Shown here piece by piece: positions 17,050 to 50,105 of a DNA stretch of 64,000 bases. The notes beneath the pieces were generated by a model, which had not been told where the DNA came from, did not search any database, and saw only the letters and a list, made by a program, of their open reading frames with translations. This DNA comes from Candidatus Hadarchaeota archaeon. GTDB taxonomy: Archaea; Hadarchaeota; Hadarchaeia; Hadarchaeales; Hadarchaeaceae. Location: contig CAZETV010000001.1 of assembly GCA_964514965.1 (NCBI GenBank), positions 30,756 to 94,755 on the forward strand, given 5' to 3'. How positions within the stretch are numbered: position 1 is the stretch's first letter; each line of letters begins with the position of its first letter. The translations under genes were made by a program, and so were the position numbers.

Positions 17050-17142
17050 GGGCCCGTGGCGCAGATTGGTTAGCGCGTTCGGCTGATAGCCAGTTTGGCA
17101 GAAACCGGAAGGTCGAGGGTTCGAATCCCTCCGGGCCCACCA
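17050..17142 (+). tRNA. tRNA-Ile (anticodon GAU) with 15-nt intron at 37/38 (17089..17103), CCA encoded
   Basis: Manual fold. Acceptor GGGCCCG/CGGGCCC, D-arm GCGC-AGATTGGTTA-GCGC, anticodon stem TTCGG/CCGGA with loop CTGATA|intron|A, T-arm GAGGG-TTCGAAT-CCCTC. Confidence 0.85.
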
Positions 17143-19182: not shown

Positions 19183-19256
19183 GCCGGGGTGGCCCAATCT
19201 GGAAAGGCGGCGGACTGCAGATCCGCTTTTTGCCGGTTCAAATCCGGCCCCCGGCT
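19183..19256 (+). tRNA. tRNA-Cys (anticodon GCA), no intron, U73 discriminator, CCA not encoded
   Basis: Manual fold. Acceptor GCCGGGG/CCCCGGC, anticodon stem GCGGA/TCCGC with loop CTGCAGA, T-arm GCCGG-TTCAAAT-CCGGC, discriminator T. Confidence 0.85.
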
Positions 19257-19357: not shown

Positions 19358-20212
19358 ATGTGCCCGCCTTCGAAACTTTTCGGATTCGCGCTTGCGGCGA
19401 TTTTTGTGGTCGTTGGATTGTCTGGATTAGTGGGTGCAGTTTCCGATCATGGGTGGACTCTCGAAACCGCAGACCAGGCCTTCCAGACTTGGATAATAAC
19501 GGATATAGAAGTAGGGCAGCAGGCAACGCTCACAGTCGATAGTTCCGGAAACTTTACAGGTTTGGGCTGGGTCGGAACCGCCCCAGGTGCTGGCGACTAT
19601 AACATCTATATCACGAATGGTAGGATGTCAGGTACCTCGATGACCTTTCAGGTGAGTGCTTCTTATAGCGGAGGACAAGGGACCATTTCAGGAACAGGTA
19701 CTGGGACACTGAACGCATCATTCCCGAGCGCTACATCAGCATCCGGAACACATTCCGGCACCATATCGGATCCACTTGGCAGTAAGGCTTACAGCTCCTC
19801 GTGGACTGCAACGAAAATTGGGGGAGACGGCGATGGAGGAGGTCTAGTCTTCCCAGACCTCACCGTATTAATCTATCGTGTAGCACCGGGTGTATCCCTT
19901 ATCGTCGCTATAGTTGCAGCTGTTGCAATCGTAGTCGCTATTCTGCCCCTTCCACGTAAGGGGGTTCGACCCACAAGAGGTAAGTTAAAAACCGGTGCGC
20001 CTGCCAGCATGGTTCAGCATCTAGATTCAATACAAAAAATCCCGCCGGGTGCACGGCCTCTGCCTCAACCTAGGTTGCATCCGGGCAAATTTGAGCCAAC
20101 CGATGTCCTTCAAAAAGTCCCCTGTCCATACTGCGGTACTATCCTCATTTCCGCATTTGGAAAATGGTACTGCCCGAATCCAAAGTGCAAATGGAATAAA
20201 GGAGAAGTGTAA
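19358..20212 (+). CDS. bitopic membrane protein: N-terminal signal/anchor, Gly/Ser/Thr-rich extracellular domain, TM helix, cytoplasmic C-terminal zinc ribbon
   Basis: N-terminal hydrophobic segment (LFGFALAAIFVVVGLSGLVGA), a low-complexity GTxxGTGTGT region, a second TM segment (VSLIVAIVAAVAIVVAILPLP), and C-terminal CPYCG ... CPNPKC. TTTATAAA lies about 25 nt upstream, suggesting a leaderless transcript. Confidence 0.55.
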   Translation: MCPPSKLFGFALAAIFVVVGLSGLVGAVSDHGWTLETADQAFQTWIITDIEVGQQATLTVDSSGNFTGLGWVGTAPGAGDYNIYITNGRMSGTSMTFQVSASYSGGQGTISGTGTGTLNASFPSATSASGTHSGTISDPLGSKAYSSSWTATKIGGDGDGGGLVFPDLTVLIYRVAPGVSLIVAIVAAVAIVVAILPLPRKGVRPTRGKLKTGAPASMVQHLDSIQKIPPGARPLPQPRLHPGKFEPTDVLQKVPCPYCGTILISAFGKWYCPNPKCKWNKGEV

Positions 20213-21147: not shown

Positions 21148-21963
21148 TTAATATTCTGATGGGAGTTGTTTTAGTTTTTCATACGAAAAGACAGGTCCAT
21201 CTCGGCATACATAAACACTGCCTAAATTGCACCTTCCGCATTTGCCCAATCCGCACTTCATTTTCATCTCAAGCGTCATAAAAATTTGATCGGGTTTGAA
21301 TCCTAACTCCAAGAGGTTTTTCATGACAAAGTTTATCATGATTGGGGGACCGCAAGTCACGGCTATCGAATTTCCGGATGGAGGAGAAATTTTCAGCAAG
21401 TTGGCGGGTACGAAGCCTACAAATTCACCCCACCCATCCTCGGCCTTGTCGATTGATAAATGCACCTTTACTCCGTTATCCCTTAAGCCAAGGAGTTCTT
21501 TTTCTCGAATCAAATCTTTCCTACTCCTTGCTCCGTAAATTAACATCAATTCTCTGTACTTTCCTTTATTCATTGTATAGTAAAGCAGAGGTCTCAGTGG
21601 GGGTAAACCTATGCCGCCGCCGATTAGTATTAATTTTTTTCCTTCCCACTCTTTAACTGGAAAACCGTTCCCATACGGTCCTCTTACCCAAACGGTTTCT
21701 CCCACCTCGAGTCTGTGCAGCGCCGTTGTAACTTTGCCCATCTTTTTCACGCAGATTTCTATTTTACCTTCAGCTGGTGGCGAAAAAAGAGAGACCGGAA
21801 ACTCACCTTCCCCTAGCACTGATATTTCGAAGTACTGTCCCGGAACAAAATTTAGCTTCTCTTCTCTGTCTTTTAGCTCCAGCTCAAAGCTCTTTATGTC
21901 TGGCGTTTCTTGCCTGATTTGCTTGATTACTGCGGGTTTTGGAGAGTAAATATATTCAGTCAA
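21148..21963 (-). CDS. NAD(P)H-binding FAD/[2Fe-2S] oxidoreductase subunit (sulfhydrogenase gamma HydG/AsrB/PyrK/FlxA-like)
   Basis: FNR-like FAD and NAD(P) domains (RPYS-type region, GGGIGLPPLRPL) and a C-terminal Cys cluster CGLGKCGRCNLGSVYVC. The proposed start is a TTG that overlaps the upstream stop (TTGA), with GGTGGGG 5 nt upstream. The track ATG start at 22014 would overlap the upstream gene by 55 bp. Confidence 0.75.
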   Translation of the reverse strand: MTEYIYSPKPAVIKQIRQETPDIKSFELELKDREEKLNFVPGQYFEISVLGEGEFPVSLFSPPAEGKIEICVKKMGKVTTALHRLEVGETVWVRGPYGNGFPVKEWEGKKLILIGGGIGLPPLRPLLYYTMNKGKYRELMLIYGARSRKDLIREKELLGLRDNGVKVHLSIDKAEDGWGEFVGFVPANLLKISPPSGNSIAVTCGPPIMINFVMKNLLELGFKPDQIFMTLEMKMKCGLGKCGRCNLGSVYVCRDGPVFSYEKLKQLPSEY

Positions 21964-22961
21964 GATTTCCCCACCTTCGATAATATCTCGATTAAATTTA
22001 TCCCTGATGGACAATTATCTAAGCATCTCCCGCAGCCGACGCAGCCGATTTCATCGATGTTTTCCAACAGGTATTGGAACTTGTGGTAGACTCTGTTTCG
22101 AATCCTCTCTCGTCGGGTTGGTCTTGGGTTATGGCCGGAGGATTGCAAGGTGAAATAAGGGAACGTGCAAGAATCCCAAGTTCTCACCCTGAAGGTTTTG
22201 CCGTCCAAGAATTCGTCAGTCAAATCAAAGCAATGACAGGTGGGGCAAAAGTAAGCGCATACCCCACAGCCAATACATATTTTGGATACTTCGTCCCAGA
22301 TTTCGCTTTCGAAAGTGTGTTTTAATTTTGCGGTTACCTGCTTCACATCTAATTCTCGTGCAATCTTTTTTTCCGCGTTCTGCTGGGTGTTTTTCCTTAA
22401 CTCTATATCAGCTTTGGTTGGTTCTGAGAACAATTCTTTGCTACTCTCAACCAATTTTTCCCCGACCTTGCTCAACACTTCCACATAGTATTTCTCACCC
22501 ATATCTGTGAGCAGCATATCGAGCCCATCTGTAGAAAACGGACCCAAGCCGAGAGAGCTGCAAAAACAATTTTCCCCTGGGGATGTACAGGCCAGCCCGA
22601 TCATGGGGAGATTATTTTTCCTCTGTAAAAAGTAAGGGTCTTCACGATCTTTTTCGAAAACCTTGGTCAACACCTGTATGCTTTTCGCATCGCAGGGTCT
22701 AACTCCAAATATTACTCCCAAGTTCGAAACTTTTGGTGTATAGATCTCCTTTTTGCCCGCCATGAAAATCGTTTCCGTTTGAGGCATGAATAAAGACTTG
22801 ATTGGTTTCAGGGTGTTCGTGAACTCAAAAGTTATTTCTTTCGGATCATTTACAAGCTTAAACTCGATTTTGCCTTCCTCATCTTTAACAGGTGCATATA
22901 ACTTTTCAGTGCGCAGATTTCGCAGAAACTTTTGCAAATCTCTCTTCTTGATGACTTTCAT
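21960..22961 (-). CDS. 4Fe-4S subunit, sulfhydrogenase beta/AsrA/FlxB-like
   Basis: GVRPCDAKS N-domain motif plus two ferredoxin-type motifs (CIGCGVCAYFCPTCHC and CVGCGRCLDNCP). Start overlaps the upstream gene with ATGA. Confidence 0.75.
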   Translation of the reverse strand: MKVIKKRDLQKFLRNLRTEKLYAPVKDEEGKIEFKLVNDPKEITFEFTNTLKPIKSLFMPQTETIFMAGKKEIYTPKVSNLGVIFGVRPCDAKSIQVLTKVFEKDREDPYFLQRKNNLPMIGLACTSPGENCFCSSLGLGPFSTDGLDMLLTDMGEKYYVEVLSKVGEKLVESSKELFSEPTKADIELRKNTQQNAEKKIARELDVKQVTAKLKHTFESEIWDEVSKICIGCGVCAYFCPTCHCFDLTDEFLDGKTFRVRTWDSCTFPYFTLQSSGHNPRPTRRERIRNRVYHKFQYLLENIDEIGCVGCGRCLDNCPSGINLIEILSKVGKS

Positions 22962-23929
22962 CTTATGAACTCCTCAGGATCCTCTAGTTTAAAACTCGCG
23001 AGAAGAGGTTTCTGTTCTATATTTATGCCCGCCCTGTAGTCAAAAAGATTCTTCATGTCTTTTTCCATTTTTCTAAACAGCTTTGAGAGTGGTATCCCCT
23101 CCGGGCAGCTATGTTCGCACGCAACGCAGCCAACGCACCTCCCGGCCAAGTGGAATACTCTCATCAAATGGAAAAAGGCATTTTCGGACTCAACTACTGA
23201 TTTTTTAACCCATGTTGGCATCGTCTTGTCCGCGAGACATTCTTTGCAATAGCAGAGCGGACACACTTCCCTGCAGGCATAGCACCTAACACATTTACTT
23301 AGCTTTTCCTTCCAGTAATCCCATCTCTCCTCTAACTCCATTCTCTCTATCTCCTTCACGTCGTCGTAGTTCTCTTTGCCCCAGGGTTTCACTTCCTCGC
23401 CGAGCAGGATATCATAAATTACAGGGGTGGGATTTTGGCAGTGATTGCAACTGTCGAACACGAATTCTCTTCGATCGAGTTTGATGACTCCATTTTTTGT
23501 TTCGACTTTCACTGTTCCGTTTTCGATTAGAATTCCCGTGACTGAAGAGGACTGTACATTTCTTTTACCGAGCTCTTCACGCAGTTTTTCAAGGTCTACT
23601 ATACCCTGGCAAGGAATTCCTATCAGCACCACTTTCTCTCTGTCAACAATCCCTTCCTGTATCAACTTTGTCACTGCACGGCTATCGCAACCTTTGACCA
23701 CCAAGCCGATTTTTTCGCCTGCTTTGATTTCTTCTAAAGTTAAATAGACGGCCAAATTGTGAGCACATAGAGAGGAATAGTGTAGTTTGTTAACATCATC
23801 GGTCGATTTAGCAAAGAAGGGCCTCGCGTTCAAGGGTTCGACCATTTCGTATCCGATGATATATTTCACTTTTCCTTCGGTCAGTAGCCTGTTTGCCTCT
23901 TTTCGGAGATTTTCTACTAAGCTTACCAT
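22958..23929 (-). CDS. second HydB/AsrA-like 4Fe-4S subunit (FlxC-like paralog of 21960..22961)
   Basis: KGCDSRAV N-domain motif plus CVRCYACREVCPLCYC and CVGCVACEHSCP. It is paralogous to the adjacent gene and translationally coupled on both sides. Confidence 0.65.
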   Translation of the reverse strand: MVSLVENLRKEANRLLTEGKVKYIIGYEMVEPLNARPFFAKSTDDVNKLHYSSLCAHNLAVYLTLEEIKAGEKIGLVVKGCDSRAVTKLIQEGIVDREKVVLIGIPCQGIVDLEKLREELGKRNVQSSSVTGILIENGTVKVETKNGVIKLDRREFVFDSCNHCQNPTPVIYDILLGEEVKPWGKENYDDVKEIERMELEERWDYWKEKLSKCVRCYACREVCPLCYCKECLADKTMPTWVKKSVVESENAFFHLMRVFHLAGRCVGCVACEHSCPEGIPLSKLFRKMEKDMKNLFDYRAGINIEQKPLLASFKLEDPEEFIR

Positions 23930-24345
23930 TCTATCTTCCTCTTGATTTTTTTCATTGGGCCAAGCACTCGGATTTCTTCCACCATGTCTTCCACGATTTT
24001 AGCAAACTTCTGTCCTTCCGATGCAGAAACCCACGCGGCTTGGAGCCTTTTTGGATTTATCCCAATGTATTCCAAAAGATTTCTTAGGAGCTTCAGTCTT
24101 CTTCTATTGTAATAGTTTCCTTCCCGATAATGGCATTCCCCTGGGTGACAACCACCTATGAACACGCCGTCAGCTCCTTGCTGGAAACACCTCAACACCC
24201 ACAATGGATTCACCCTGCCCGAGCACATCACCCTGATGGTTCTCAAGTTAGGCGGGTAGGTCAATCTGCTAGTACCTGCCAAATCGGCTCCCGCATAAGC
24301 ACACCAATTGCATAAGAAGCCTACTATACGCGGTTCCCAACTCAA
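23923..24345 (-). CDS. mvhD: MvhD-type [2Fe-2S] electron-transfer subunit (FlxD/MvhD)
   Basis: 140 aa with the FLCNWCAYAGAD ... CSGRV ... GADGV(F/L)IGGCHPGECHY pattern typical of methyl-viologen-reducing hydrogenase delta subunit. Confidence 0.85.
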   Translation of the reverse strand: MSWEPRIVGFLCNWCAYAGADLAGTSRLTYPPNLRTIRVMCSGRVNPLWVLRCFQQGADGVFIGGCHPGECHYREGNYYNRRRLKLLRNLLEYIGINPKRLQAAWVSASEGQKFAKIVEDMVEEIRVLGPMKKIKRKIEW

Positions 24346-27300
24346 CTTTGCTCACCCAGTACATCGATTAAGGGCAATACTTGTTTGTCTTCAAAGTGTC
24401 GCTGTTGAATGGCTCCTGAAGGACAGGCTGCAGAGCATATGCCGCAACCTTTACATAACGCTTCATTTACCTTGGCTAATTTTGATATTGCCCCTTTCTT
24501 CTCCACCGTCTTGAGTTCTATTACATTTGTTGGACAAACCTCAGCACAGAAACCACAACCAGTGCACAAATTCTCATCGACCGAGGCCACAATTCCTTCG
24601 GCCATCACCTTACCTTTTGTTAACAAAGAGCAAACTTCAGCTGCGCTCGCTGATGCTTGTGATACTGTGTCGGGGATGTCTTTGGGCGATTGGGCGCATC
24701 CAGCAAGGAAGATCCCGTCGCTAAAGGTATCGACAGGTCTAAGCTTTGGATGGGCCTCGAGGAAGAAGCCATCCGAGCCTTGGTTAATGTTTAGGATTTT
24801 GGCTAGCTCGGAGGCACCATGGCTAGGAACAATCGCGCTAGCTAACACCACGAGGTCTACTTCTTCGGGCTCGTGAGGCTTTGCTTCCACAACGAGTTTG
24901 TCATTTTTTTTGCTGACCCTTATCTCGTCGTCCAGCTCCCTGCGCTTGTACTTCACTCCTTCGTCCTTGACCCGGTCGTAGAACTCCTCGTACCCTTTAC
25001 CAAAAGCCCTGACATCTGTGTAGTATACAGTCACTTCAGCATCCGGAATTTTTTCCTTAATGAGGTGAGCATGCTTGGCCGTGTACATGCAGCATACGCG
25101 CGAGCAATATGAGTTCGTCTCTTTTTTCCTGCTTCCAACACAGGAGATGAATGCTACTCGCTTCGGCTCCTTACCGTTTATTTCAATTTTTCCGTTGGTC
25201 GGGCCGGAAGCCGAACTAAGCCTCTCGAACTCAAGCCCAGTTATCACCTCTGGATATTTCCCGTAACCATACTCGGGGAGCTTGGAAGGATCGAATTGAT
25301 CGAAGCCCGTGGTTACGACTATAGCGCCAACATCGAGTTCGATTGATTCCTCTTTTTGATTATGAACAATGGCTTTGGCCTCGCATGCTTTTTCACATTC
25401 AAGACACTCAGAACACCCGCCGCACTGCAAACATCGTTTTGCTTCTTTTATCGCTTCTTCTTCGGTATAACCTAACTCGACTTCTCGAAAGTTGTTTTTC
25501 CTCTCTTCGATCGGCAGGTATCTCATCGGCACTTTTCGTTCATTTTTAACATCTTCTACTGATACCTCAGCGATTTTTGGTTTTATCCCGCGACCGTCTT
25601 TCAGGTCTTTCTCGTTGATGTATCTGTCAATGGAAATTGCAGCTTCTTTTCCGGCAGCAATTGCTTCTATAACAGTCCCAGCACCTAACACGGCATCGCC
25701 GCCGCAAAAAACGGCTTCTATATTGGTTGCTAACGATATAGGGTCAATTTTGACAGTTCCCCAAGGGGTACATTCTAAATTAATATCCTTGGTTAAGAAG
25801 CTCAAATCCACTTCCTGTCCGATAGCTAATATCAGGCTATCCGCTTCCATCATAAACTCAGAGCCAGGGATGGGTCTAACTTTTCTTCTACCAGTTTCAT
25901 CAGGCTCTGTCAATTCCATCTTGATGCATTCAATTGCTTTGATATGCTCGTTTTCACCTATAATTTTTGTTGGTGTGGTAAGATAGACTAGTTTCACGCC
26001 TTCATGCTCTGTTTCGTCAATTTCCCATTCTGGTTCTGCAGGCATTTCTACACGAGACCTGCGATACATTATGATAACTTCCTTAGCACCTAATCTCAAA
26101 GCAGAACGTGCTGTGTCTAATGCTGCATTGCCTCCACCAACGACAATTATCTTATCGCCTAGTTTAGGAGTCTTACCTAAATTCAGCTCTTTCAAGAATT
26201 CGGTAGCTTGGAATACACCTCCAAGTTTTTCGCCAAGTATATCCATTTTTCTACCTTTCTGAGCCCCCACAGCTAAAAAAATCGCTTTATAACCACTGTC
26301 GAATAGGTTCTTTATAGTCAAATTTTTGCCTATCGCCGAGTTCAGATGCACTTTAACTCCTAGCGCGAGAATGTCAGATATCTCTCTTTCAAGAATTTCT
26401 CTCGGCAGTCGAAAAGTAGGAACACCAAATCGCATCATGCCGCCAAGCACGGGCGCACTTTCATATATTGTTACAGGGTATCCTTTCATAGCAAGGTCAT
26501 GAGCAGCAGTTAAGCCAGCAGGCCCTCCTCCGACTATAGCCACAGTTTCTGTTCTCTTTTTTATAGGGGAGGATTCTGTAGTAGGGCTCTTGAGCTCTAA
26601 ATCTCCGACAAAACGTTTAATATGTGCTATGCTTACTGGCTCATCTATATCTTTTCTTGTGCATGCTTTTTCGCAAGGCCTGTGACAGACCCTGCCGCAT
26701 ATAGATGGAAACGGAAGTTTCTCTTTTATAACTTGGAGTGCCTCGTAGAATTTACCGCGACTGGTGAGCATTACGTAACCAGGTGCGCCAACACCTGCAG
26801 GGCACGCGTCTTTGCATGGTTGTAATCCCCGTTTATCGATAGTATATTTGGGCGGAACCGCTTGTGGGAATGGAATGTAAATTGATTTTCTGCTGCTGAG
26901 CCCAAAGTCAAACTCGTTTGGCAGTTTCACAGAGCATACTTCGGTGCATTCTCCACATCCAGTACACTTTTCCGGGTCCACGTATCTAGGCTTTTTCCTT
27001 ACTTTTAACTTAAAGTTACCTACATAACCCTCGATGTTTTCAATTTCTGAATAAGTCAGGAGTTCTATATTTGGATGCCATTTTACGTCTACCATCTTGG
27101 GGGTGAGAATGCACGCAGAGCAATCCAGAGTTGGGAAAGTCTTGTCGAGTTGGGCCATCCTCCCTCCGATGGATGGTGAGCGCTCCACGAGGTATACTTT
27201 GAAACCCCTGTCCGCGATGTCGAGGGCAGCTTGCATCCCGGCTATGCCCCCGCCTATTACGGCGGCCTGAGGTATGACGGAAATTTCGTTTCTTTCCAAG

Positions 27301-27689
27301 CTTTCGAGTTCTACAGCTCTGTTTACACCTGCCAAGACGAGTTCCAGCGCTTTTTTCGTAGCTTCTTCTTTTTCTTCATGAACCCAAGAGCATTGCTCTC
27401 TTATATTCACCATCTCGAAGCAGTAAGGATTCAGCCCCGCTTCTTCGACAGCGCTGCGAAAAGTAGGCTCATGCATCCTGGGCGAACAAGATGCTACTAC
27501 TATTCTGTCTAACTTCTCCCTGCGGATATCATCTTTGATTAATTGCTGGCCGGGTTCTGAGCACATGTATTCGTAGTGTTTGGAGACCTTCACTCTTGGA
27601 TGCTTTCCTATGGTATCCGCGACTTTTTCGACATCCACTGTCTTCGCAATGTTGGTTCCGCAATGACAGATATAGACGCCGATTTTCAT
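24342..27689 (-). CDS. hdrA: HdrA-like flavoprotein with embedded GltD/NfnB-like NAD(P)H oxidoreductase module (HdrL-type giant HdrA), 1115 aa
   Basis: N-terminal HdrA domain (GVYICHCGTNIA, VIGGGIAGMQAAL), then about 430 aa with GltD-type 2x[4Fe-4S] (CKDACPAG ... CGRVCHRPCEKAC) and two Rossmann motifs (VAIVGGGPAGLTAAHDL; IIVVGGGNAALDTARSA), then the rest of HdrA including the inserted and C-terminal ferredoxin domains. One continuous ORF, 4-bp overlaps on both sides. Confidence 0.8.
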   Translation of the reverse strand: MKIGVYICHCGTNIAKTVDVEKVADTIGKHPRVKVSKHYEYMCSEPGQQLIKDDIRREKLDRIVVASCSPRMHEPTFRSAVEEAGLNPYCFEMVNIREQCSWVHEEKEEATKKALELVLAGVNRAVELESLERNEISVIPQAAVIGGGIAGMQAALDIADRGFKVYLVERSPSIGGRMAQLDKTFPTLDCSACILTPKMVDVKWHPNIELLTYSEIENIEGYVGNFKLKVRKKPRYVDPEKCTGCGECTEVCSVKLPNEFDFGLSSRKSIYIPFPQAVPPKYTIDKRGLQPCKDACPAGVGAPGYVMLTSRGKFYEALQVIKEKLPFPSICGRVCHRPCEKACTRKDIDEPVSIAHIKRFVGDLELKSPTTESSPIKKRTETVAIVGGGPAGLTAAHDLAMKGYPVTIYESAPVLGGMMRFGVPTFRLPREILEREISDILALGVKVHLNSAIGKNLTIKNLFDSGYKAIFLAVGAQKGRKMDILGEKLGGVFQATEFLKELNLGKTPKLGDKIIVVGGGNAALDTARSALRLGAKEVIIMYRRSRVEMPAEPEWEIDETEHEGVKLVYLTTPTKIIGENEHIKAIECIKMELTEPDETGRRKVRPIPGSEFMMEADSLILAIGQEVDLSFLTKDINLECTPWGTVKIDPISLATNIEAVFCGGDAVLGAGTVIEAIAAGKEAAISIDRYINEKDLKDGRGIKPKIAEVSVEDVKNERKVPMRYLPIEERKNNFREVELGYTEEEAIKEAKRCLQCGGCSECLECEKACEAKAIVHNQKEESIELDVGAIVVTTGFDQFDPSKLPEYGYGKYPEVITGLEFERLSSASGPTNGKIEINGKEPKRVAFISCVGSRKKETNSYCSRVCCMYTAKHAHLIKEKIPDAEVTVYYTDVRAFGKGYEEFYDRVKDEGVKYKRRELDDEIRVSKKNDKLVVEAKPHEPEEVDLVVLASAIVPSHGASELAKILNINQGSDGFFLEAHPKLRPVDTFSDGIFLAGCAQSPKDIPDTVSQASASAAEVCSLLTKGKVMAEGIVASVDENLCTGCGFCAEVCPTNVIELKTVEKKGAISKLAKVNEALCKGCGICSAACPSGAIQQRHFEDKQVLPLIDVLGEQS
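24877..25274. repeat. 398-bp tract 100% identical to 28197..28594 (within the two hdrA paralogs); similarity extends over about 24650..25290
   Basis: Base-by-base comparison at a constant offset of 3320 bp. Identity is perfect across 24877..25274 and about 85-90% identity in the flanks. Confidence 0.9.
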
Positions 27690-29644
27690 GATATCAGACC
27701 TGCCAATTGAGCGAAGAGTTGAACGTCCGTGTAATGTTTCATAGAGATAGCCTTAGACGGACAAGCGGCTACACAAACCCCGCAACCCTTGCAAAGCACT
27801 TCGTTGAGTTTTACTGAGCGTTTTTCGCTGTTATATTCAAAGGCATTAAACTCACAAAGGTGTTCACACACTCTGCAACCGCTACATAGATCCTCATCCA
27901 CAATTGCTACTATCGGCTCTATCGCGACTTTTCCAGCTGCCAGGGGTATAGATGCTTTAGCACCTGCACCGCTTGCTTGTGCTACTGTGTCGGGGATGTC
28001 TTTGGGCGATTGGGCGCAGCCGGCAAGGAAGATCCCGTCGCTAAAGGTATCGACAGGCCTAAGCTTTGGGTGGGCCTCGAGGAAGAAGCCATCCGAACCG
28101 CGGGTAATGTTCAAAATTCTGGCGAGTTCTAAGACTCCGGAGTTTGGAACTATTGCATTCGCCAGCACAACGAGGTCTACTTCTTCGGGCTCGTGGGGCT
28201 TTGCTTCCACAACGAGTTTGTCATTTTTTTTGCTGACCCTTATCTCGTCGTCCAGCTCCCTGCGCTTGTACTTCACTCCTTCGTCCTTGACCCGGTCGTA
28301 GAACTCCTCGTACCCTTTACCAAAAGCCCTGACATCTGTGTAGTATACAGTCACTTCAGCATCCGGAATTTTTTCCTTAATGAGGTGAGCATGCTTGGCC
28401 GTGTACATGCAGCATACGCGCGAGCAATATGAGTTCGTCTCTTTTTTCCTGCTTCCAACACAGGAGATGAATGCTACTCGCTTCGGCTCCTTACCGTTTA
28501 TTTCAATTTTTCCGTTGGTCGGGCCGGAAGCCGAACTAAGCCTCTCGAACTCAAGCCCAGTTATCACCTCTGGATATTTCCCGTAACCATACTCAGGCAA
28601 CTGAGATGGATCAAACAAGTCAAAGCCTGTGGCGACCACTATCGAGCCTACTTCAAGTTCAATCGAATTTTCTTGTTGTTCAAAATCGATAGCGTTGCGG
28701 GAACACGCAGCTTTGCAAGCGGGGCTTTTCCCACATACCCCTCTCGTAAGGTATAGGCAATGCTTAGGGTCTATCAAGTATTTCATAGGCACGGCCTGCG
28801 GAAATGGTATGTATGCTGCTCCTCTCTTCCCTAAACCCAAATCGAATTCATTTGGAAGCTTCCCATTCAGTAAGCAAGCTTTGGCGCATTCTCCGCAACC
28901 GATGCACTTTTCCTCATCGACATACCTCGGTTTTTTCTTAACCTTTACCTTGAAATTTCCGATGTAGCCTTCAATTCGTTCGACCTCCGAATAACTCAAG
29001 AGTTCTATATTTGGCTGTCTGTTCACGTCCACCATCTTGGGGGTTAAAATGCACGCAGAACAATCTAAGGTTGGAAAGGTTTTGTCGAGTTGAGCCATTT
29101 TTCCTCCGATGGATGGTGAGCGCTCCACGAGGTACGTGTATATTCCATTTTCTGCTATCTCCAACGCCGCTTGAATCCCGGCAATTCCTCCTCCAATCAC
29201 CAAAGCTTTCGGTATTACATCTACTTCTCTCCTCTCTAGCGGCTGAAGTTCGGTAGCTCGTGCCACAGCGCCTGCAATCAATTTCTTGGCCTTTTCAGTG
29301 GCTCTTTCTTTATCTTCATGAACCCAAGAGCACTGTTCTCTTATATTTGCCATCTCGAAGCAGTAGGGGTTGAGGTTCTTGTGTTCTACGACCTTTCTAA
29401 AAGTGGGTTCGTGCATTCTTGGAGAACAGCTCGCCACGACTACACGATCAAGTCCGGCTTCGTCTATATCCTTCTTGATTAATTCTTGTCCTGGGTCAGA
29501 GCACATGTACTTATAGTCCCTAGCAATCACCACGTTTGGCAAAGACTTGGCATATTTCACCACTTCTTCAACATCAACGGTAGCCGCTATATTTAAGCCG
29601 CAATGGCAAATGTACACGCCCGTTTTCACTTCCTTATCCCCCAT
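27686..29644 (-). CDS. hdrA: heterodisulfide reductase subunit A (canonical length, 652 aa)
   Basis: N-terminal GVYICHCGLNIA and FAD-binding VIGGGIAGIQAALEIAENG, the HdrA four-Cys insertion, C-terminal ferredoxin motifs CSGCRVCEHLC and CKGCGVCVAACP. No in-frame TGA. Confidence 0.9.
   Translation of the reverse strand: MGDKEVKTGVYICHCGLNIAATVDVEEVVKYAKSLPNVVIARDYKYMCSDPGQELIKKDIDEAGLDRVVVASCSPRMHEPTFRKVVEHKNLNPYCFEMANIREQCSWVHEDKERATEKAKKLIAGAVARATELQPLERREVDVIPKALVIGGGIAGIQAALEIAENGIYTYLVERSPSIGGKMAQLDKTFPTLDCSACILTPKMVDVNRQPNIELLSYSEVERIEGYIGNFKVKVKKKPRYVDEEKCIGCGECAKACLLNGKLPNEFDLGLGKRGAAYIPFPQAVPMKYLIDPKHCLYLTRGVCGKSPACKAACSRNAIDFEQQENSIELEVGSIVVATGFDLFDPSQLPEYGYGKYPEVITGLEFERLSSASGPTNGKIEINGKEPKRVAFISCVGSRKKETNSYCSRVCCMYTAKHAHLIKEKIPDAEVTVYYTDVRAFGKGYEEFYDRVKDEGVKYKRRELDDEIRVSKKNDKLVVEAKPHEPEEVDLVVLANAIVPNSGVLELARILNITRGSDGFFLEAHPKLRPVDTFSDGIFLAGCAQSPKDIPDTVAQASGAGAKASIPLAAGKVAIEPIVAIVDEDLCSGCRVCEHLCEFNAFEYNSEKRSVKLNEVLCKGCGVCVAACPSKAISMKHYTDVQLFAQLAGLIS
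28197..28594. repeat. 398-bp tract 100% identical to 24877..25274
   Basis: See partner feature. Confidence 0.9.
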
Positions 29645-29742: not shown

Positions 29743-30735
29743 TTGAGAAAAATGAAGAGTGAAGAACCAAAAAAGTTGAAATTTGCTTTCTACTGGGCTG
29801 GCAGTTGTGGGGGCTGTGAGATTGCTGTTCTAGATATAAACGAGAAGATTCTGGATGTGGTTGCCATTGCTGAGGTAATCTTTTGGCCTGTCGCCATGGA
29901 TATCAAGTATAAAGACGTAGACGCGATGCCGGACAAGAGCATAGACGTCTGTTTCTTTAATGGTTCGGTCAGGACAGAGGAGCAAGAACACATGGCCAAA
30001 CTTCTGAGGCGGAAGTCAAAGTTTTTGATAGCATTTGGCACCTGTGCTCAGCTAGGTGGCATTCCAGGTCTTGCGAACATTTCGAATAAAAAAGAGATTT
30101 TCGAGAAGGTATACGTTCAAACTCCATCGACAAAAAATTCTAAAGCTGCGATACCTAAAACTGCTGTTAAAGTCGAATGCGGGGAACTAACTCTGCCAGA
30201 GTTTTATGATACTGTGAAGACACTAGATCAAACCGTGGAAGTGGACTACTATATCCCAGGTTGTCCTCCGCACCCAAACTTGATATTGAAAGCCGTGGAA
30301 GCCATAGCCAAAAATGAGTTACCCGCTAAAGGTTCGGTATTGGCCCCCGAGAAGTCGGTTTGCGATGAATGTCAGAGGGAAAAGAAAGAAAAGGTTATCT
30401 CCAGATTATACAGGATGCACGAAATCAAACCAGATCCGGAGAAATGTTTTTTGGAGCAGGGGGTGGTGTGCATTGGGCCCGCAACCCGTGGTGGATGCGA
30501 GGCGCGGTGTATCAATGCGAATATGCCTTGTACGGGGTGCGGTGGTCCATGCCCCAATGAAATCGAGCAAGGGGCGTCCATGATAAGTGCCATTTCTTCG
30601 ATTCTCGGGTTGGATGAGGAAAAAGGAGAAACATATGACGCTGAAAAATTAATCAACCAAATAAAAGACCCCTTGGGGACTTTTTACCGGTACTCCCTGC
30701 CAGCTGCTCTCATCCGAAGGAGGGTTCAGAAATGA
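29743..30735 (+). CDS. mvhG: [NiFe] hydrogenase small subunit, F420-non-reducing type (MvhG)
   Basis: N-terminal YWAGSCGGCEIAVLD, proximal and distal cluster Cys (CxxC ... GCPP ... CTGCGGPCP), approximately 330 aa. Confidence 0.85.
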   Translation: MRKMKSEEPKKLKFAFYWAGSCGGCEIAVLDINEKILDVVAIAEVIFWPVAMDIKYKDVDAMPDKSIDVCFFNGSVRTEEQEHMAKLLRRKSKFLIAFGTCAQLGGIPGLANISNKKEIFEKVYVQTPSTKNSKAAIPKTAVKVECGELTLPEFYDTVKTLDQTVEVDYYIPGCPPHPNLILKAVEAIAKNELPAKGSVLAPEKSVCDECQREKKEKVISRLYRMHEIKPDPEKCFLEQGVVCIGPATRGGCEARCINANMPCTGCGGPCPNEIEQGASMISAISSILGLDEEKGETYDAEKLINQIKDPLGTFYRYSLPAALIRRRVQK

Positions 30736-32219
30736 GCGAATTTAAGGAGATAAGCATAGAGCCCGTCACGAGGCTTGAGGGTCACGCAAAGATAGTGATA
30801 TTTCAAGATGAGAAAGGGGAAGTGAAAAACGCCTATTTACAACTCCCTGAACTCAGGGGCTTTGAGAGATTCTGTGAGGGGAGAAAAGCTGAAGACCTCC
30901 CACAGCTGCTCTCGAGAATTTGCGGAGTATGTCCCGTTGCCCATCATCTCGCTTCCACGAAAGCTTTGGATGCGGCGTTTCGTGTGGACCCCCCTTCAGC
31001 TGCGAAAAAACTTCGGGAACTCATGTACAGCGGCTATTTCATGTACGATCACATTCTTAATTTTTATTTCCTAGCTGCGCCGGACTTCGTCGTGGGGCCT
31101 GATGCTCCACCTCAAGAAAGAAACATTTTCGGCGTGATCAAGAAGGTCGGCTTAGACGTGGCCAAGGAAGTAATCAAGCATCGGGCTTACGGCCAAAAAA
31201 TTACCGAGATAATAGGTGGAAAGGCAACCCATCCGGTTTGTGGACTTCCGGGTGGCATATCCAAGCCGCTGACGGAAGAAGAAAGAAAGGAAATAGAAAA
31301 GATGGCGGAGGCCGGGCTTGAATTCGCCAAGTTCAGCTTGAAGTTATTTGACGATGTTGTATTGAAAAATAAGAAATACGTTGACCTGATTATGAGCGAC
31401 GCTTACACTTTAAAAACATATTACATGGGTCTAGTGGACCGAAACAACAAGGTCAATTTTTACGATGGCAAAATACGTGTGGTTAATCCCGGGGGTCAAG
31501 AGTTCGTGAAGTTTAACCCATCCGAATACTTGGACATCATCGAGGAGCATGTTGAGGAATGGAGCTATGTAAAACTACCTTATCTCAAAAAAATCGGATG
31601 GAAAGGCTTGAGGGATGGACATAGCAGCGGGATTTACAGAGTTGGTGCATTGGCCAGACTAAATGCCGCAGATGGCATGGCGACTCCCCTAGCCCAGCAA
31701 GAGTACGAGAGGATGTATGAAACCCTAGGCGGGAAGCCCGTGCACTCAACTCTCGCGTTTCACTGGGCTAGACTGATAGAAATAATTTATGCGGCCGAAA
31801 GATGCCTAGAGCTCAGTCGAGATGAAGAGATAACGAGCAAGGAAATTCGAAACGAGCCAAATACCCCGGGAGAAGGAATCGGAATAGTCGAAGCTGCGAG
31901 AGGTACATTGATCCATCATTACAATCTTAACAAAGAGGGCCTAACCGAAAAAGTAAATTTGATAGTCCCTACGACCAACAACAATCCATCCATCTGCATG
32001 TCCGTGAGGGATGCAGCGAAGGGGCTCATCCATGGTAAAGAAGTTAGCGAGGGGTTGCTGAACATGGTGGAGATGGCTTTGAGAGCTTATGACCCATGTA
32101 TCGCATGCGCTTCCCACTGCCACATAGGCGATTTGCCCCTTGAAATAAAAATACACGATAATAATCGGAGTTTGATAAAAACCGTTGTGAGAGAACCTCT
32201 TGGCTTTAAACACTTTTAG
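30732..32219 (+). CDS. mvhA: [NiFe] hydrogenase large subunit (MvhA)
   Basis: N-terminal RLEGHAKIVI and RICGVCPVAHH (RxCGxCxxxH) with C-terminal DPCIACASHCH Ni-binding motif followed by a cleavable tail. Overlaps mvhG by 4 bp. Confidence 0.9.
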   Translation: MSEFKEISIEPVTRLEGHAKIVIFQDEKGEVKNAYLQLPELRGFERFCEGRKAEDLPQLLSRICGVCPVAHHLASTKALDAAFRVDPPSAAKKLRELMYSGYFMYDHILNFYFLAAPDFVVGPDAPPQERNIFGVIKKVGLDVAKEVIKHRAYGQKITEIIGGKATHPVCGLPGGISKPLTEEERKEIEKMAEAGLEFAKFSLKLFDDVVLKNKKYVDLIMSDAYTLKTYYMGLVDRNNKVNFYDGKIRVVNPGGQEFVKFNPSEYLDIIEEHVEEWSYVKLPYLKKIGWKGLRDGHSSGIYRVGALARLNAADGMATPLAQQEYERMYETLGGKPVHSTLAFHWARLIEIIYAAERCLELSRDEEITSKEIRNEPNTPGEGIGIVEAARGTLIHHYNLNKEGLTEKVNLIVPTTNNNPSICMSVRDAAKGLIHGKEVSEGLLNMVEMALRAYDPCIACASHCHIGDLPLEIKIHDNNRSLIKTVVREPLGFKHF

Positions 32220-32272
32220 AGATATCTTTTCGTGTCGCATAAGTTAGCAAACTATCGCAACGGGTAAGTCAA

Positions 32273-32770
32273 ATGGAAAAATGTGCGATTCAAAATAATT
32301 TCAACGAGAAGCTCAAGAAGTGGCTTCTAGATGCCCGAAGGGTTGTTATCGCAGGTATTGGAAGCTCGATTCGAAAAGATGATTTCATAGGGGTCGGGGT
32401 CGTAGAAAAACTACGGGGGAAAGTTTCACGATCGGTTCATTTAATAGTGTGTGGAATGTCTCCTGAGAATTTTTTAGAACCGATTATTCACTTTAAGCCA
32501 ACCCACGTACTATTTGTCAACGCGGCTCAACTAGGCTTAAAACCTGGTTCTTCAAGGTTGATTGAACTAAATCAGATTTCGTGGCCAGCGGTATTGACTC
32601 ATGCTCTAACTCATCAGATATTTCGAGAATTTCTAACAGAGGCAACTGGTGCTAAGGTCGCTCTGCTCGCCGTGCAACCAAAGGACACGAGTTTTGGAGA
32701 AGGTTTTACAAAAGAATTGGAAGAAACTGTCGAGCGTTTATCAAGTTTTTTGTTGAGGGTTTTACCCTGA
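32273..32770 (+). CDS. hydrogenase maturation endopeptidase (HycI/FrhD-like)
   Basis: 165 aa with GIGSSIRKDDFIGVGVVEKL and a downstream His, typical of hydrogenase maturation proteases. Sits directly after mvhA. Confidence 0.75.
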   Translation: MEKCAIQNNFNEKLKKWLLDARRVVIAGIGSSIRKDDFIGVGVVEKLRGKVSRSVHLIVCGMSPENFLEPIIHFKPTHVLFVNAAQLGLKPGSSRLIELNQISWPAVLTHALTHQIFREFLTEATGAKVALLAVQPKDTSFGEGFTKELEETVERLSSFLLRVLP

Positions 32771-50069: not shown

Positions 50070-50105
50070 ATGAATTTTTAAAACTGAAGCCTGACCTGTT
50101 TTAAA

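Follow-up and report, generated by a model that had tools for sequence, protein, structure and literature searches.

The window analysed here, i.e., the whole stretch of 64,000 nucleotides, carries at 24342..27689 on the minus strand an intact, in-frame ORF with an ATG start, a length of 1115 aa and no internal stops, as originally predicted. The product runs as HdrA over aa 1-285, as a GltD/NfnB-like module over aa 286-758, and as HdrA again to the C-terminus. The genes and tracts at this locus are as follows.

21148..22014, minus strand: sulfhydrogenase gamma-subunit-like protein, at most 288 aa, with FAD, NAD(P)H and [2Fe-2S] motifs (Pfam FAD_binding_6, NAD_binding_1, DHODB_Fe-S_bind)
21960..22961, minus strand: sulfhydrogenase beta-subunit-like Fe-S protein, 333 aa (Pfam Fer4_22; 9nez_B)
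22958..23929, minus strand: FdhB/FrhB-like iron-sulfur (flavo)protein, 323 aa (Pfam FrhB_FdhB_C; FdhB chains 9t1s_M, 8rvu_E and 7bkb_E, E 1e-27 to 6e-22)
23923..24345, minus strand: mvhD, FlpD family, 140 aa, sharing 4 nt with the fusion gene (Pfam FlpD, E 1.7e-56)
24342..27689, minus strand: hdrA-gltD/nfnB fusion gene (HdrL / type III HdrA), 1115 aa (ORF list, translation, Pfam, PDB sequence search, AF2 model, Foldseek)
24877..25274, minus strand: 398-bp identical tract, fusion copy, aa 806-938 (exact string identity)
27686..29644, minus strand: canonical hdrA, 652 aa, first gene of the operon (ORF, Pfam, BLASTP against the fusion)
28197..28594, minus strand: 398-bp identical tract, canonical hdrA copy (exact string identity)
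29743..32770, plus strand: divergent operon of mvhG-like, mvhA-like and hycI-type genes (Pfam)
29743..30735, plus strand: mvhG-like small subunit (Pfam)
30732..32219, plus strand: mvhA-like [NiFe] large subunit (Pfam, structure match)
32273..32770, plus strand: hycI-type protease (Pfam)
32808..33269, minus strand: second mvhD paralogue, 153 aa, 3' of sufC-sufB (Pfam FlpD, E 6e-55)

The ATG of the fusion gene overlaps the stop codon of the upstream canonical hdrA by 4 nt, and gene overlaps of 4-7 nt point to a single operon. The start codon of the gamma-like gene is uncertain, since a TTG start places its first 55 nt within the upstream gene. The fusion gene itself is divided as follows, all on the minus strand.

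27300..27689, minus strand: HdrA N-terminal domain, aa 1-130 (colinear with 5odc_A residues 5-291; Cys conservation)
26982..27299, minus strand: thioredoxin-reductase-like FAD domain, first part, aa 131-236 (translation, Pfam, structure match, conservation)
26835..26981, minus strand: inserted ferredoxin domain, first half, aa 237-285 (BLASTP against the neighbouring HdrA; left junction)
25542..26834, minus strand: GltD/NfnB-like module body, aa 286-716 (Pfam Fer4_20 and Pyr_redox_2; alignments to 9bov_A, 9n5u_A, 8oh5_C, 4ylf_B and 5jca_L; conservation; pLDDT ~90)
25416..25541, minus strand: relocated NfnB-fold N-terminal helix with C753-x2-C756, aa 717-758, here called the tail (NfnB and Pfam alignments)
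25365..25415, minus strand: inserted ferredoxin domain, second half, aa 759-775 (translation, neighbour BLASTP, junction alignment)
24600..25364, minus strand: thioredoxin-reductase-like domain, second part, aa 776-1030 (neighbour BLASTP, structure match, conservation)
24345..24599, minus strand: C-terminal 2x[4Fe-4S] ferredoxin domain, aa 1031-1115 (Pfam Fer4/Fer4_7, aa 1034-1095)

In a search of solved structures, HdrA matched aa 2-286 and, in two stretches, the whole protein (E ~1e-225), and aa 290-768 matched StnC/NfnABC, NfnB and GltD (E 6e-128 to 1e-65). Pfam places Fer4_20 (aa 290-367, E 4e-23) and Pyr_redox_2 (aa 382-680, E 8.5e-43) between HdrA-type parts, confirming the GltD/NfnB-like nature of the middle region. 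The AF2 model has a mean pLDDT of 81.5, with HdrA and NfnB as its Foldseek matches. All of the motifs quoted beforehand (GVYICHCGTNIA, VIGGGIAGMQAAL, CKDACPAG, CGRVCHRPCEKAC, VAIVGGGPAGLTAAH and IIVVGGGNAALDTARSA) are present.

The HdrA portions retain their cofactor ligands. The N-terminal domain, with limits set after Wagner et al. 2017, holds C8, C10, C43 and C68, which are invariant in the family alignment. The first FAD-domain part contains the FAD motif GGGIAG (aa 146-151; GxGxxG, aa 144-151) and C190/C193, corresponding to the "Cys197" region of HdrA, which ligates the N-terminal cluster of the partner protomer. Its second part provides the cluster ligands C850/C862/C866/C867 and K872, at the position of HdrA Lys409, which contacts the FAD N5. 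The eight cysteines of the C-terminal ferredoxin domain, which in Mvh-Hdr takes electrons from MvhD, are likewise all invariant in the family alignment. The first half of the inserted ferredoxin domain carries C242-x2-C245-x2-C248-x3-C252 and ends in PQAVPPKYTID; the second carries C759-x2-C762-x2-C765-x3-C769 and starts two residues past the last Cys of the module. The original prediction had put the insert between the N-terminal and FAD domains, which is incorrect: the FAD motif (aa 144-151) and C242/245/248/252 precede it, and the insert splits the inserted ferredoxin domain of HdrA, after the FAD motif.

The module body contains two [4Fe-4S] sites (C292/C296-P and C331/335/339/343), an FAD Rossmann motif GGGPAG (aa 387-392), an NADPH Rossmann motif GGGNAA (aa 518-523) with YRRSR (aa 542-546), and R427 at the position of NfnB Arg187. 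The module is complete, its NADPH site bearing the Arg-Arg 2'-phosphate motif alongside the FAD site and both [4Fe-4S] sites. Its order is unusual for NfnB. T. maritima NfnB residues 45-459 align to fusion aa 290-691 and residues 3-42 to the tail; likewise, positions 30-110 of the Pfam Fer4_20 profile match aa 290-367 and positions 1-51 match the tail. Almost all of 130 homologues examined have the tail after the body. The module is thus circularly permuted relative to free NfnB, and the tail closes it. Of the insert bounds proposed earlier, the upper one (~nt 26840) agrees with the start at aa 286 (nt 26834). The lower one (~nt 25590, aa 700) is too early, because the last 42 aa of the module are the relocated NfnB helix and CxxC, and the true end is at ~aa 758 (nt 25416).

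The same order, body first and then helix and CxxC, is found in StnC/NfnABC, unlike NfnB. The bit scores against the module are 433, 418 and 377 for NfnABC/StnC (C. saccharolyticus and T. sibiricus NfnABC; StnC), compared with 352 and 324 for NfnB and 233 for GltD. The closest likeness of the module is to the NADPH-input module, a non-bifurcating port, of StnC/NfnABC-type enzymes. In StnC, the equivalent module is a linear feed from NADPH through FAD to C7 and C6, with bifurcation elsewhere in the enzyme. Among 27 aligned sequences, R427, E340 and K872 are invariant, YRR is kept in 24, and, apart from C331 (24/27), no cysteine of the four junction clusters varies. The contiguous run C753xxC756xxC759xxC762xxC765xxxC769, with six Cys invariant in 27/27, is a candidate cluster wire from the module to the HdrA ferredoxin domain. 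The retention of R427, equivalent to the NfnB Arg touching N5 of the bifurcating FAD, makes a second bifurcation site conceivable.

Both junctions are colinear in all 120 best homologues of the fusion protein. The left junction is identical in 19 aligned family members, and in relatives ranging from 900 to 1726 aa, both archaeal and bacterial, conservation of the two junctions extends to each residue. An orthologue of the same length (P0001, 1115 aa, 92% identity) is encoded on the JGI metagenome contig L080; other proteins of 1115 aa in its 90% cluster come from NCBI (Hadesarchaea DG-33) and ENA. Both junctions thus recur in orthologues assembled independently and in more than 100 homologues, which shows the fusion to be real and not an assembly chimera.

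This architecture has been published as HdrL (2009), as HdrA-NfnB in ANME-1 (2022) and as type III HdrA (2025); in the latter two, the module was placed inside the inserted ferredoxin domain. The present fusion is a further member of this previously described type. The assignment as an HdrL-type fusion thus held, with mvhD following as in the original HdrL definition, as did the comparison with Moorella, whose HdrA does bear a GltD domain and is part of a MetFV-HdrABC-MvhD complex described as acting with NADH. The archaeal context had been regarded as notable. However, the architecture is common in archaea and the context is therefore unremarkable: it has been described in ANME-1 and Bathyarchaeota, and was also found here in Hadesarchaea, the group to which the source of the window belongs, and in Theionarchaea, Methanofastidiosia, Thermoplasmata, Asgard archaea and Syntrophoarchaeum. 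Nor is the tandem canonical hdrA special to this locus, as it recurs in L080, L081 and L085/86, and in relatives of 1500-1726 aa the insert-bearing HdrA is fused to a second plain HdrA. No mention was found in the three papers of circular permutation or likeness to StnC/NfnABC, of a sister locus with a divergent module without Arg-Arg, of a 398-bp gene-conversion tract, or of the recurring mvhD/fdhB-like/beta-gamma-like/hdrA-gltD gene set. No family member with an established physiological reaction was found in the searchable literature, so the reaction of the fusion protein is one we infer.

The mvhA-like protein matches MvhA (5odc_F) at E 9.5e-117 versus E 5e-29 for sulfhydrogenase alpha, and the large subunit is thus of the Mvh type. 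The beta-like protein matches P. furiosus sulfhydrogenase I beta (9nez_B) at E 3.5e-53, and the gamma-like protein, of the PyrK family, matches 9nez_C at E 3e-63 versus E 2e-14 for NfnA (4ylf_A). The FdhB-like and beta/gamma-like subunits add a second NAD(P)H site. The set of mvhD, fdhB-like, beta-like, gamma-like and fusion genes is shared by Hadesarchaea, an Asgard archaeon, a Theionarchaeon and one further lineage, often beside mvhAG-hycI; mvhD adjoins the fusion gene throughout L080-L086, and the FdhB-like gene is likewise a conserved part of the set. The divergent mvhG/mvhA/hycI operon is syntenic in L080, L082 and L085, and the second mvhD paralogue is also present in L080. In bacterial family members, only mvhD of this set lies nearby.

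The reading we favour, with moderate confidence, is that of a type III HdrA with a nested NADP(H) module, paired with the canonical HdrA in an Mvh-linked H2/NADP(H)/ferredoxin complex, the most likely role of the fusion being the NADP(H) port of this bifurcating complex. The canonical HdrA, whose inserted ferredoxin domain is unsplit (C246/249/252/256 and C296/305/311/315), is the probable heterodimer partner; the N-terminal domain and the Cys197-region cysteines are present in both proteins. With its open ferredoxin site, it would form an asymmetric heterodimer with the fusion, which together with MvhD, the Mvh-type [NiFe] hydrogenase, and the FdhB-like and sulfhydrogenase beta/gamma-like subunits would make up a soluble complex coupling H2/H+, NADP(H) and ferredoxin via flavin-based bifurcation or confurcation. 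A hydride from NADPH would pass to the module FAD, and its electrons, one by one, through the two module clusters to the pair in the split ferredoxin domain, and from there via the N-terminal-domain cluster to the bifurcating FAD of HdrA; alternatively, the flow may be reversed. The idea that NAD(P)H electrons reach HdrA is supported by the retention of every cofactor determinant required for it, but "directly" goes too far, as the flavins are separated by four or more [4Fe-4S] clusters, to which the N-terminal-domain cluster should probably be added. By the route above, NADP(H) would occupy the arm that in methanogen HdrA ends at free ferredoxin, where the inserted ferredoxin domain serves as low-potential exit. 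At about -320 mV, NADP(H) would be an energetically awkward fit for this arm without a retuning of the arm potentials.

A heterodisulfide, disulfide or polysulfide reductase, in which HdrBC or HdrD from elsewhere in the genome joins the HdrA pair, is unlikely. NAD(P)H would then be the mid-potential donor to a disulfide (high) and to H+ via Mvh or to ferredoxin (low), unless the flow runs the other way. Such a scheme has been put forward for type III HdrA in Bathyarchaeota, from an hdrA cluster containing mvhADG, and agrees with HdrB/HdrC or HdrD genes within a few kb of the fusion-type gene in the Asgard locus L082 and in L085/86, and with the co-production of HdrABC/HdrL proteins in Syntrophobacter during sulfate reduction. 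However, Pfam and searches gave no CCG-domain or HdrC gene within the 64-kb window, which is hence without hdrBC, and no CCG-domain gene in contigs L080, L081 and L083/84; genes for HdrBC may lie in another part of the genome. Moreover, Hadarchaeota are mostly described as heterotrophs, with HdrABC reported for the alkane-oxidising family only, and the FdhB-like and beta/gamma-like subunits of the operon could fill the HdrBC position.

Unlikely, too, is a series of two bifurcating flavins, as suggested for ANME-1 HdrA-NfnB, in which the module behaves as a genuine NfnB with a bifurcating or confurcating FAD. The role of NfnA, giving or taking the high-potential NAD(H) electron, would fall to the PyrK-like gamma subunit and its beta partner, and the low-potential arms of the module FAD and the HdrA FAD would meet head to head via four clusters. 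The invariance of R427 (NfnB Arg187, the b-FAD N5 contact) and E340, the fold match to NfnB (Foldseek TM-score 0.79-0.80, rmsd 2.5-2.8 A) and a PyrK-family FAD/[2Fe-2S]/NAD(P)H gene kept with the fusion gene across phyla argue for it. However, the module is nearer in score and permuted topology to StnC/NfnABC, whose FAD is a non-bifurcating port with the equivalent Arg off N5; the PyrK-like protein resembles sulfhydrogenase gamma, with a beta-like partner present, rather than NfnA; and the bacterial members have no PyrK-like gene nearby.

The 398-bp tract bears on the last alternative, an assembly chimera of hdrA and nfnB/gltD with the tract as a collapsed or mis-polished repeat. An exact repeat between tandem paralogues is indeed a feature that can confuse assemblers, but this reading of the fusion itself is extremely improbable, being already refuted by the equal lengths and junctions in the independent JGI, NCBI and ENA assemblies; the junctions are kept across archaea and bacteria, one cuts a Cys motif in a way sensible only for a folded, permuted domain, the AF2 model is confident throughout the module, and the repeat is in frame in both genes, where a copy swap would yield identical sequence. 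The claim of near-identity to the neighbouring HdrA applies to aa 806-938 (100%), the remaining regions being 49-77% identical (65% and 76% before the insert; 63%, 100%, 77% and 49% after it). The flanks of the tract show 62-76% nucleotide identity between the two genes, and in the orthologous locus L080 the tract region is 87% identical between its two genes. Because the tract is exactly identical to the tandem canonical hdrA, it indicates gene conversion between the two; a recent origin of the fusion as the cause of the post-insert likeness was rejected in favour of this local tract. A sister locus has a module that is without the NADPH Arg-Arg motif and only ~40% identical to that of the fusion, with HdrA flanks that are ~90% identical.

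The fusion gene hdrA-gltD is an ORF of 1115 uninterrupted codons on the minus strand (24342..27689), and its ATG overlaps by 4 nt the stop codon of the upstream 652-aa ORF, i.e., the tandem canonical hdrA gene (27686..29644, minus strand). All of the peptide motifs quoted in the original prediction are found in its translation. Pfam places Fer4_20 at aa 290–367 (E = 4e-23) and Pyr_redox_2 at aa 382–680 (E = 8.5e-43), with FAD-oxidoreductase matches N-terminal and 2×[4Fe–4S] ferredoxin matches C-terminal to them, confirming the domain annotation expected between HdrA-type parts. In a comparison with all PDB sequences, aa 2–286 and the C-terminal third match HdrA chains from the Mvh-Hdr, Fdh-Hdr and Elp-Hdr complexes (with E values from about 1e-187 to 1e-225), the HdrA core matches 5odc_A and 8rvu_a in two stretches (E about 1e-222), and aa 290–768 match GltD-fold proteins (E 6e-128 to 1e-65). 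An AlphaFold2 model built on 27 relatives shows a mean pLDDT of 81.5 overall and about 90 across the module. Foldseek searches with this model returned HdrA at TM-scores of 0.62–0.66 (normalised to target) and NfnB and GltD at 0.79–0.80 with an rmsd of 2.5–2.8 Å; no solved structure of any insert-bearing HdrA was found among the Foldseek and PDB matches. The ORF, the Pfam and PDB sequence matches and the fold matches thus establish the proposed HdrA fusion with a GltD/NfnB-like insert as real, far beyond chance.

The position of the insert differs from that first proposed, i.e., between the N-terminal and FAD domains. According to BLASTP, aa 1–288 and aa 749–1105 are colinear with the neighbouring canonical HdrA. 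The FAD motif (aa 146–151), the region corresponding to Cys197 of methanogen HdrA (C190/C193) and the first ferredoxin motif (C242/245/248/252) precede the insert, and the second ferredoxin motif (C759/762/765/769) follows it, showing that the module (aa 286–758) interrupts the ferredoxin domain that is itself inserted in the thioredoxin-reductase-like domain. The upper boundary had been placed correctly at about nt 26840, whereas the lower one, at about nt 25590 (aa 700), was about 58 aa too early. The HdrA cofactor sites are intact: the ligands C8/10/43/68, C190/193 and C850/862/866/867, the eight C-terminal Cys, and K872, the equivalent of Lys409 in methanogen HdrA, are invariant. Both junctions are conserved at every residue across archaeal and bacterial family members 900–1726 aa long and are the same as in the window protein in all relatives examined.

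Residue-level alignment with Thermotoga maritima NfnB revealed a changed order within the module. NfnB residues 45–459 align to aa 290–691 in the module body (aa 286–716), and residues 3–42, which comprise the N-terminal helix and the first two Cys of the first cluster motif, align to aa 717–756 in a tail (aa 717–758) located behind the flavin and NADPH domains. The alignment of Pyrococcus furiosus NfnB is permuted likewise, more weakly. The Fer4_20 profile of Pfam is split in the same manner, with its positions 30–110 matching aa 290–367 and its positions 1–51 matching aa 733–783. By these alignments the module is circularly permuted relative to free NfnB, and the split profile is an independent confirmation. 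The NfnB motif CxxCxxxxCxxxCP is consequently divided, such that C292xxxC296-P starts the module and C753xxC756 ends it, and the HdrA ferredoxin motif resumes two residues past the last Cys of the module. Sixteen Cys ligands are gathered at the junctions, i.e., four in C242–C252, two at C292 and C296, four in C331–C343 and six in C753–C769, which by count is enough for four predicted [4Fe–4S] clusters. They are invariant in the 27 relatives, except for C331 (24 of 27). The body-then-tail order recurs in nearly all of the 130 homologues examined, and no mention of the permutation was found in the published descriptions of HdrL, HdrA-NfnB or type III HdrA.

In dihydropyrimidine dehydrogenase and GltD, two basic residues bind the 2′-phosphate of NADPH. 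The module retains the FAD Rossmann motif and carries GxGxxA as its second Rossmann motif, and its YRRSR corresponds to VYRRT in both NfnB structures. The combination of GxGxxA and YRRS predicts NADPH as the nucleotide.

The best solved matches of the module are the large subunits of NfnABC from Caldicellulosiruptor saccharolyticus (9bov, 433 bits) and Thermococcus sibiricus (9n5u, 418 bits) and StnC of Sporomusa ovata StnABC (8oh5_C, 377 bits), with NfnB (352 and 324 bits) and GltD (233 bits) scoring lower. Module query positions 4–480 are colinear with residues 102–575 of 9bov_A and residues 102–574 of 8oh5_C, and since these alignments run colinearly through the tail, the permuted order is common to StnC/NfnABC and the HdrA module. 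Like the module, these subunits begin their GltD-like part with PCxxxCP and end it with a helix and RCLxCG-C, nest it in another Fe–S protein and share the YRR motif for NADPH. Their host, however, is NuoG-like and belongs to a Bfu-type (NuoEF-like) bifurcating complex, whereas the host here is HdrA, and Pfam scans of the 64-kb window revealed no NuoE-type or NuoF (Complex1_51K) gene. The authors of the StnABC structure assigned StnC residues 102–565 to the GltD-like module, which sits between the [2Fe–2S] domain and the rest of the NuoG-like protein. NfnB of NfnAB (T. maritima 4YLF, P. furiosus 5JCA) is about 42% identical over the structurally aligned columns, but the module differs from it in not being a free subunit and in placing the NfnB N-terminal helix and CxxC last, so that the native NfnB topology is not preserved. 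These sequence comparisons suggest that the module is a portable NADPH port, which has been nested in two or more distinct hosts, and its permuted form, common to the StnC/NfnABC and HdrA hosts, would make it a portable building block.

The protein architecture itself is a known one, met here in a lineage in which it was not previously discussed. It was named HdrL in Desulfobacterium (2009) and in Syntrophobacter, HdrA-NfnB in ANME-1, and type III HdrA in a 2025 survey of ANME-1 and Bathyarchaeota; for ANME-1 HdrA9-11 and type III HdrA, the module has been published as lying inside the inserted ferredoxin domain. As in ANME-1 HdrA9-11 and Bathyarchaeota class A10, a module of about 470–500 aa interrupts that domain here; as with HdrL of Desulfobacterium autotrophicum and Syntrophobacter fumaroxidans, mvhD lies directly next to the gene (the FlpD gene at 23923..24345); and as in the Bathyarchaeota case, mvhADG occurs within the cluster. 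Unlike the published cases, the host is a Hadesarchaeon, a group outside those surveys, and whereas the 2025 survey reported GxGxxG and inferred NADH, the window module has GxGxxA with YRRS. HdrA of the Moorella thermoacetica MetFV-HdrABC-MvhD complex also bears a GltD domain, but it differs from the window protein in having an extra thioredoxin-reductase-like domain and no inserted ferredoxin domain. A literature search found no defined physiological reaction and no fusion enzymology for family members, and no paper on Hdr in Hadesarchaea.

The fusion protein shares a 90% cluster with KUO39256.1 of Hadesarchaea archaeon DG-33. A homologue search returned at least 8000 candidates, all with E ≤ 1e-20, of which the best 120 all bear the module; those named come from Theionarchaea, Methanofastidiosia, Thermoplasmata, Promethearchaeota and one bacterial candidate phylum, and a scan of species-representative genomes adds Syntrophoarchaeum, Bacillota, Syntrophobacterales, Anaerolineae and others. 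Most hits of that scan were canonical HdrAs, its peptide patterns lying in HdrA parts. Given the published archaeal cases and these archaeal homologues, the archaeal setting, which had been singled out as notable, is not unusual. The closest non-Hadesarchaeal relatives are 1212-aa proteins (P0002–P0035, e.g., L085:8001-11639) with an extra 2×[4Fe–4S] ferredoxin domain of about 75–100 aa (CIGCGKCAEAC...CKGCGKCASVCP), which is nested in the GltD-like module immediately ahead of its NADPH Rossmann motif, i.e., at a fourth nesting level. [quoted passage not shown]

One candidate explanation for the tandem genes, i.e., that the neighbouring hdrA was recently duplicated and one copy then received the insert, was rejected. 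The N part of the fusion protein is no closer to the neighbour (65–76% identity) than to the fusion proteins of other phyla (61–72%). A neighbour-joining tree of the N part, only indicative because it lacks support values, does not place the Hadesarchaeal fusion proteins with their neighbour; in it, fusion proteins cluster with the tandem partners, separately from most of the stand-alone HdrAs. Together with the universal junctions, these N-part comparisons argue that the fusion is old. The near-identity to the neighbouring HdrA that had been reported holds over one tract only: an exact 398-bp direct repeat (24877..25274 and 28197..28594, both in the minus-strand genes), whose flanks are 62–76% identical at the nucleotide level. 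The same stretch is 87% identical between the two genes of L080, the orthologous Hadesarchaeal locus, and the tract therefore appears to stem from gene conversion that took place recently in the lineage of the window, which explains the earlier impression. Compared with the L080 orthologues, the tract is 87.4% identical to that of the fusion gene and 86.4% to that of the canonical gene, which leaves the donor direction ambiguous.

The sister Hadesarchaeal locus L081 (GCA_964345105.1) is in synteny with the window and matches it about as closely as L080 does, its proteins being identical at 95% (canonical HdrA), 94% (MvhD), 89% (FdhB-like) and 87% (beta-like). Its fusion protein (L081:527-3868) is about 90% identical in the HdrA parts but only about 40% in the module (aa 281–750), which is nearest to another lineage, P0099 (61%). 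The same mosaic is present in P0126, from an independent ENA contig. The L081 module is without the YRR motif for NADPH and has CLETRDLSSKDR instead; VCLETRDLSSKDRMPAH replaces xYRRSR-xEMPA, with Glu for the second Arg, which predicts a preference for NADH rather than NADPH. The mosaic suggests that the module was replaced and that the predicted nucleotide specificity changed with it. A published survey of type III HdrA inferred two recent, separate insertions from the HdrA flanks. Given module replacement and gene conversion, the insertion cannot be dated from HdrA-core trees, and the flanks are an unreliable clock for the fusion, a point that touches this published inference.

The fusion gene is the second of six genes in a minus-strand operon with overlaps of 4–7 nt, separated by a 98-bp divergent intergenic region from a hydrogenase operon.

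Genes of the hdrA operon, in order of transcription, and of the divergent operon
27686..29644, minus strand: canonical hdrA, 652 aa
24342..27689, minus strand: hdrA-gltD fusion gene, 1115 aa
23923..24345, minus strand: mvhD (FlpD), 140 aa, overlapping the fusion gene by 4 nt
next, minus strand: FdhB/FrhB-like protein, 323 aa, E = 1e-27 to FdhB
next, minus strand: sulfhydrogenase-I beta-like protein, 333 aa, matching 9nez_B at E = 3.5e-53
21148..22014, minus strand: sulfhydrogenase-I gamma-like protein (FAD/NAD(P)H/[2Fe–2S]), 288 aa, matching 9nez_C at 3e-63
divergent operon: MvhG-like small subunit, MvhA-like large subunit, HycI protease

The last gene of the hdrA operon belongs to the PyrK family and is paired with the beta-like subunit; NfnA was rejected as the identity of its 288-aa product, which matches NfnA at 2e-14 vs. 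3e-63 for sulfhydrogenase gamma. No ATG is present near its start, and the longest ORF, from a TTG, overlaps the beta-like gene by 55 nt; the start is uncertain because the sulfhydrogenase gamma match begins at residue 35. As in sulfhydrogenase I (group 3b, P. furiosus 9NEZ), the beta-like and gamma-like genes are adjacent and in this order. Unlike in sulfhydrogenase I, they lie in the hdrA operon, apart from the hydrogenase genes, and the hydrogenase subunits of the locus are not of the group 3b alpha/delta type. A group 3b hydrogenase, which these two genes had brought into consideration, was rejected, since the [NiFe] large subunit is of the Mvh type (9.5e-117 to MvhA, group 3c, vs. 5e-29 to sulfhydrogenase alpha). 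The locus resembles MvhADG-HdrABC of methanogens (5ODC) in bringing MvhA, MvhG, MvhD and HdrA together, with the HdrA cluster ligands and the FAD Lys all retained. It differs from that complex in that neither HdrB nor HdrC is encoded in the locus, in that the ferredoxin-docking domain of one of the two HdrA copies is occupied by the NADPH module and in that extra FdhB-like and beta/gamma-like subunits are encoded. No methanogenesis genes are seen in the window.

Gene context was compared over about 14 module-bearing loci. The set of mvhD, FdhB-like, beta-like, gamma-like and fusion genes also occurs in L080 and L081, which are likewise Hadesarchaeal contigs; in a Promethearchaeota locus (L082), together with mvhGA and hycI and with HdrCB close by on the opposite strand; in a Theionarchaeon (L083/84); and in L085/86, with mvhGA and canonical hdrA, and with HdrD, HdrCB and a second, larger fusion gene downstream. 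Bacterial fusion loci retain only mvhD nearby. Downstream of the fusion gene, L082:12690-16736 (Asgard) and L083:11321-16707 (Theionarchaeal) carry NuoF-like (Complex1_51K) genes, Fer2_4/HydA- or NuoG-like genes and a further mvhD, and L083 additionally has a NuoE-like (2Fe-2S_thioredx) fusion gene, so that a Bfu-type module adjoins an Hdr-type one. A second mvhD is found in the window as well (32808..33269, minus strand), directly downstream of sufC-sufB (33313..35231, minus strand) and convergent with the hydrogenase operon, and likewise in L080.

HdrA-based bifurcation is best understood in methanogens, in which the CoM-CoB heterodisulfide is reduced, and many non-methanogenic anaerobes bear HdrA without an obvious disulfide substrate. 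The locus outlines one possible answer for such HdrA, with NADP(H) on the arm ending at ferredoxin, an Mvh hydrogenase in the locus and no HdrBC. NADP(H) would exchange electrons with the bifurcating FAD of HdrA via the module FAD and the chain of Fe–S clusters, i.e., along the arm that ends at free ferredoxin in methanogens. An asymmetric heterodimer is favoured, in which the canonical HdrA protomer would address ferredoxin and the HdrA-GltD protomer NADP(H), because canonical HdrA has an ordinary ferredoxin domain and other lineages fuse an insert-bearing HdrA to a plain one; these giant 1500–1726-aa forms mirror the tandem gene pair of the window. With Mvh attached through MvhD, the simplest chemistry would be 2 H2 + Fd(ox) + NADP+ ↔ Fd(red) + NADPH + 3 H+, which in a fermenter would run toward H2, without HdrBC. 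The identity of the fusion and its predicted role as an NADP(H) port are held with high confidence, and for the proposed overall reaction the chances appear evenly balanced. A point against the port model is that placing NADP(H) on the low-potential arm of methanogen HdrA is energetically awkward. More tentatively, MvhAG with MvhD, the FdhB-like and beta/gamma-like proteins, canonical HdrA and HdrA-GltD may possibly form an HdrBC-independent [NiFe] hydrogenase complex that bifurcates or confurcates H2, NADP(H) and ferredoxin, with the port as an exchangeable cassette, of the NADPH type here and of the predicted NADH type in L081. If so, fermenting Hadesarchaea, Theionarchaea and Asgard archaea would have a [NiFe]/HdrA equivalent of HydABC.

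Another reading is that the locus encodes part of a classical disulfide reductase whose HdrBC is encoded elsewhere in the genome. HdrBC are the partners in published type III/HdrL cases, whereas this operon supplies FdhB-like and sulfhydrogenase beta/gamma-like partners. A Pfam scan of the principal ORFs (150 aa or longer) in the 64-kb window, with obvious opposite-strand overlaps left out, found no CCG-domain (HdrB/HdrD) or HdrC-type gene. This reading is considered unlikely. A second genuine bifurcation at the module FAD, with the gamma subunit as an NfnA analogue, appears improbable. The module does have the GltD fold, two [4Fe–4S] sites, FAD and NADPH motifs and an Arg at the flavin-N5 position (R427, equivalent to Arg187 of NfnB). 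In StnC, the Arg equivalent to the N5-contact Arg of NfnB was reported to make no N5 contact, and NADPH electrons pass linearly via FAD, C7 and C6 into the host clusters, bifurcation occurring at the NuoF-like FMN. An assembly artefact is hardly credible, the same junctions being present in archaeal and bacterial relatives. What the locus adds to the already described protein type is a permuted, exchangeable module and a conserved gene set without HdrBC. This set recurs in Hadesarchaea, Theionarchaea and Asgard archaea, whose hydrogen metabolism bears on carbon cycling in the subsurface and on syntrophic models for the origin of eukaryotes.

The remaining window is an ordinary archaeal chromosome, in which Pfam identifies eRF1, GGGP synthase, GTP cyclohydrolase III, SRP54, aminoacyl-tRNA synthetases and lysine biosynthesis genes. 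Two ORFs flanking the redox locus, 19358..20212 (plus strand, 284 aa) and 35322..35813 (plus strand, 163 aa), gave no Pfam match. Genes for pyruvate:ferredoxin oxidoreductase subunits, a local source of reduced ferredoxin, and hypF, encoding a hydrogenase maturation factor, lie at 47220..52427 (plus strand), about 20 kb from the hydrogenase/Hdr locus. Three tRNA genes are located on the plus strand (16141..16228, 17050..17139 and 19183..19256), with a small zinc-finger ORF between tRNA genes at 16473..16745. Two of the tRNA genes span 88–90 nt vs. the 71 positions of the model, which a long variable arm or an intron might explain.
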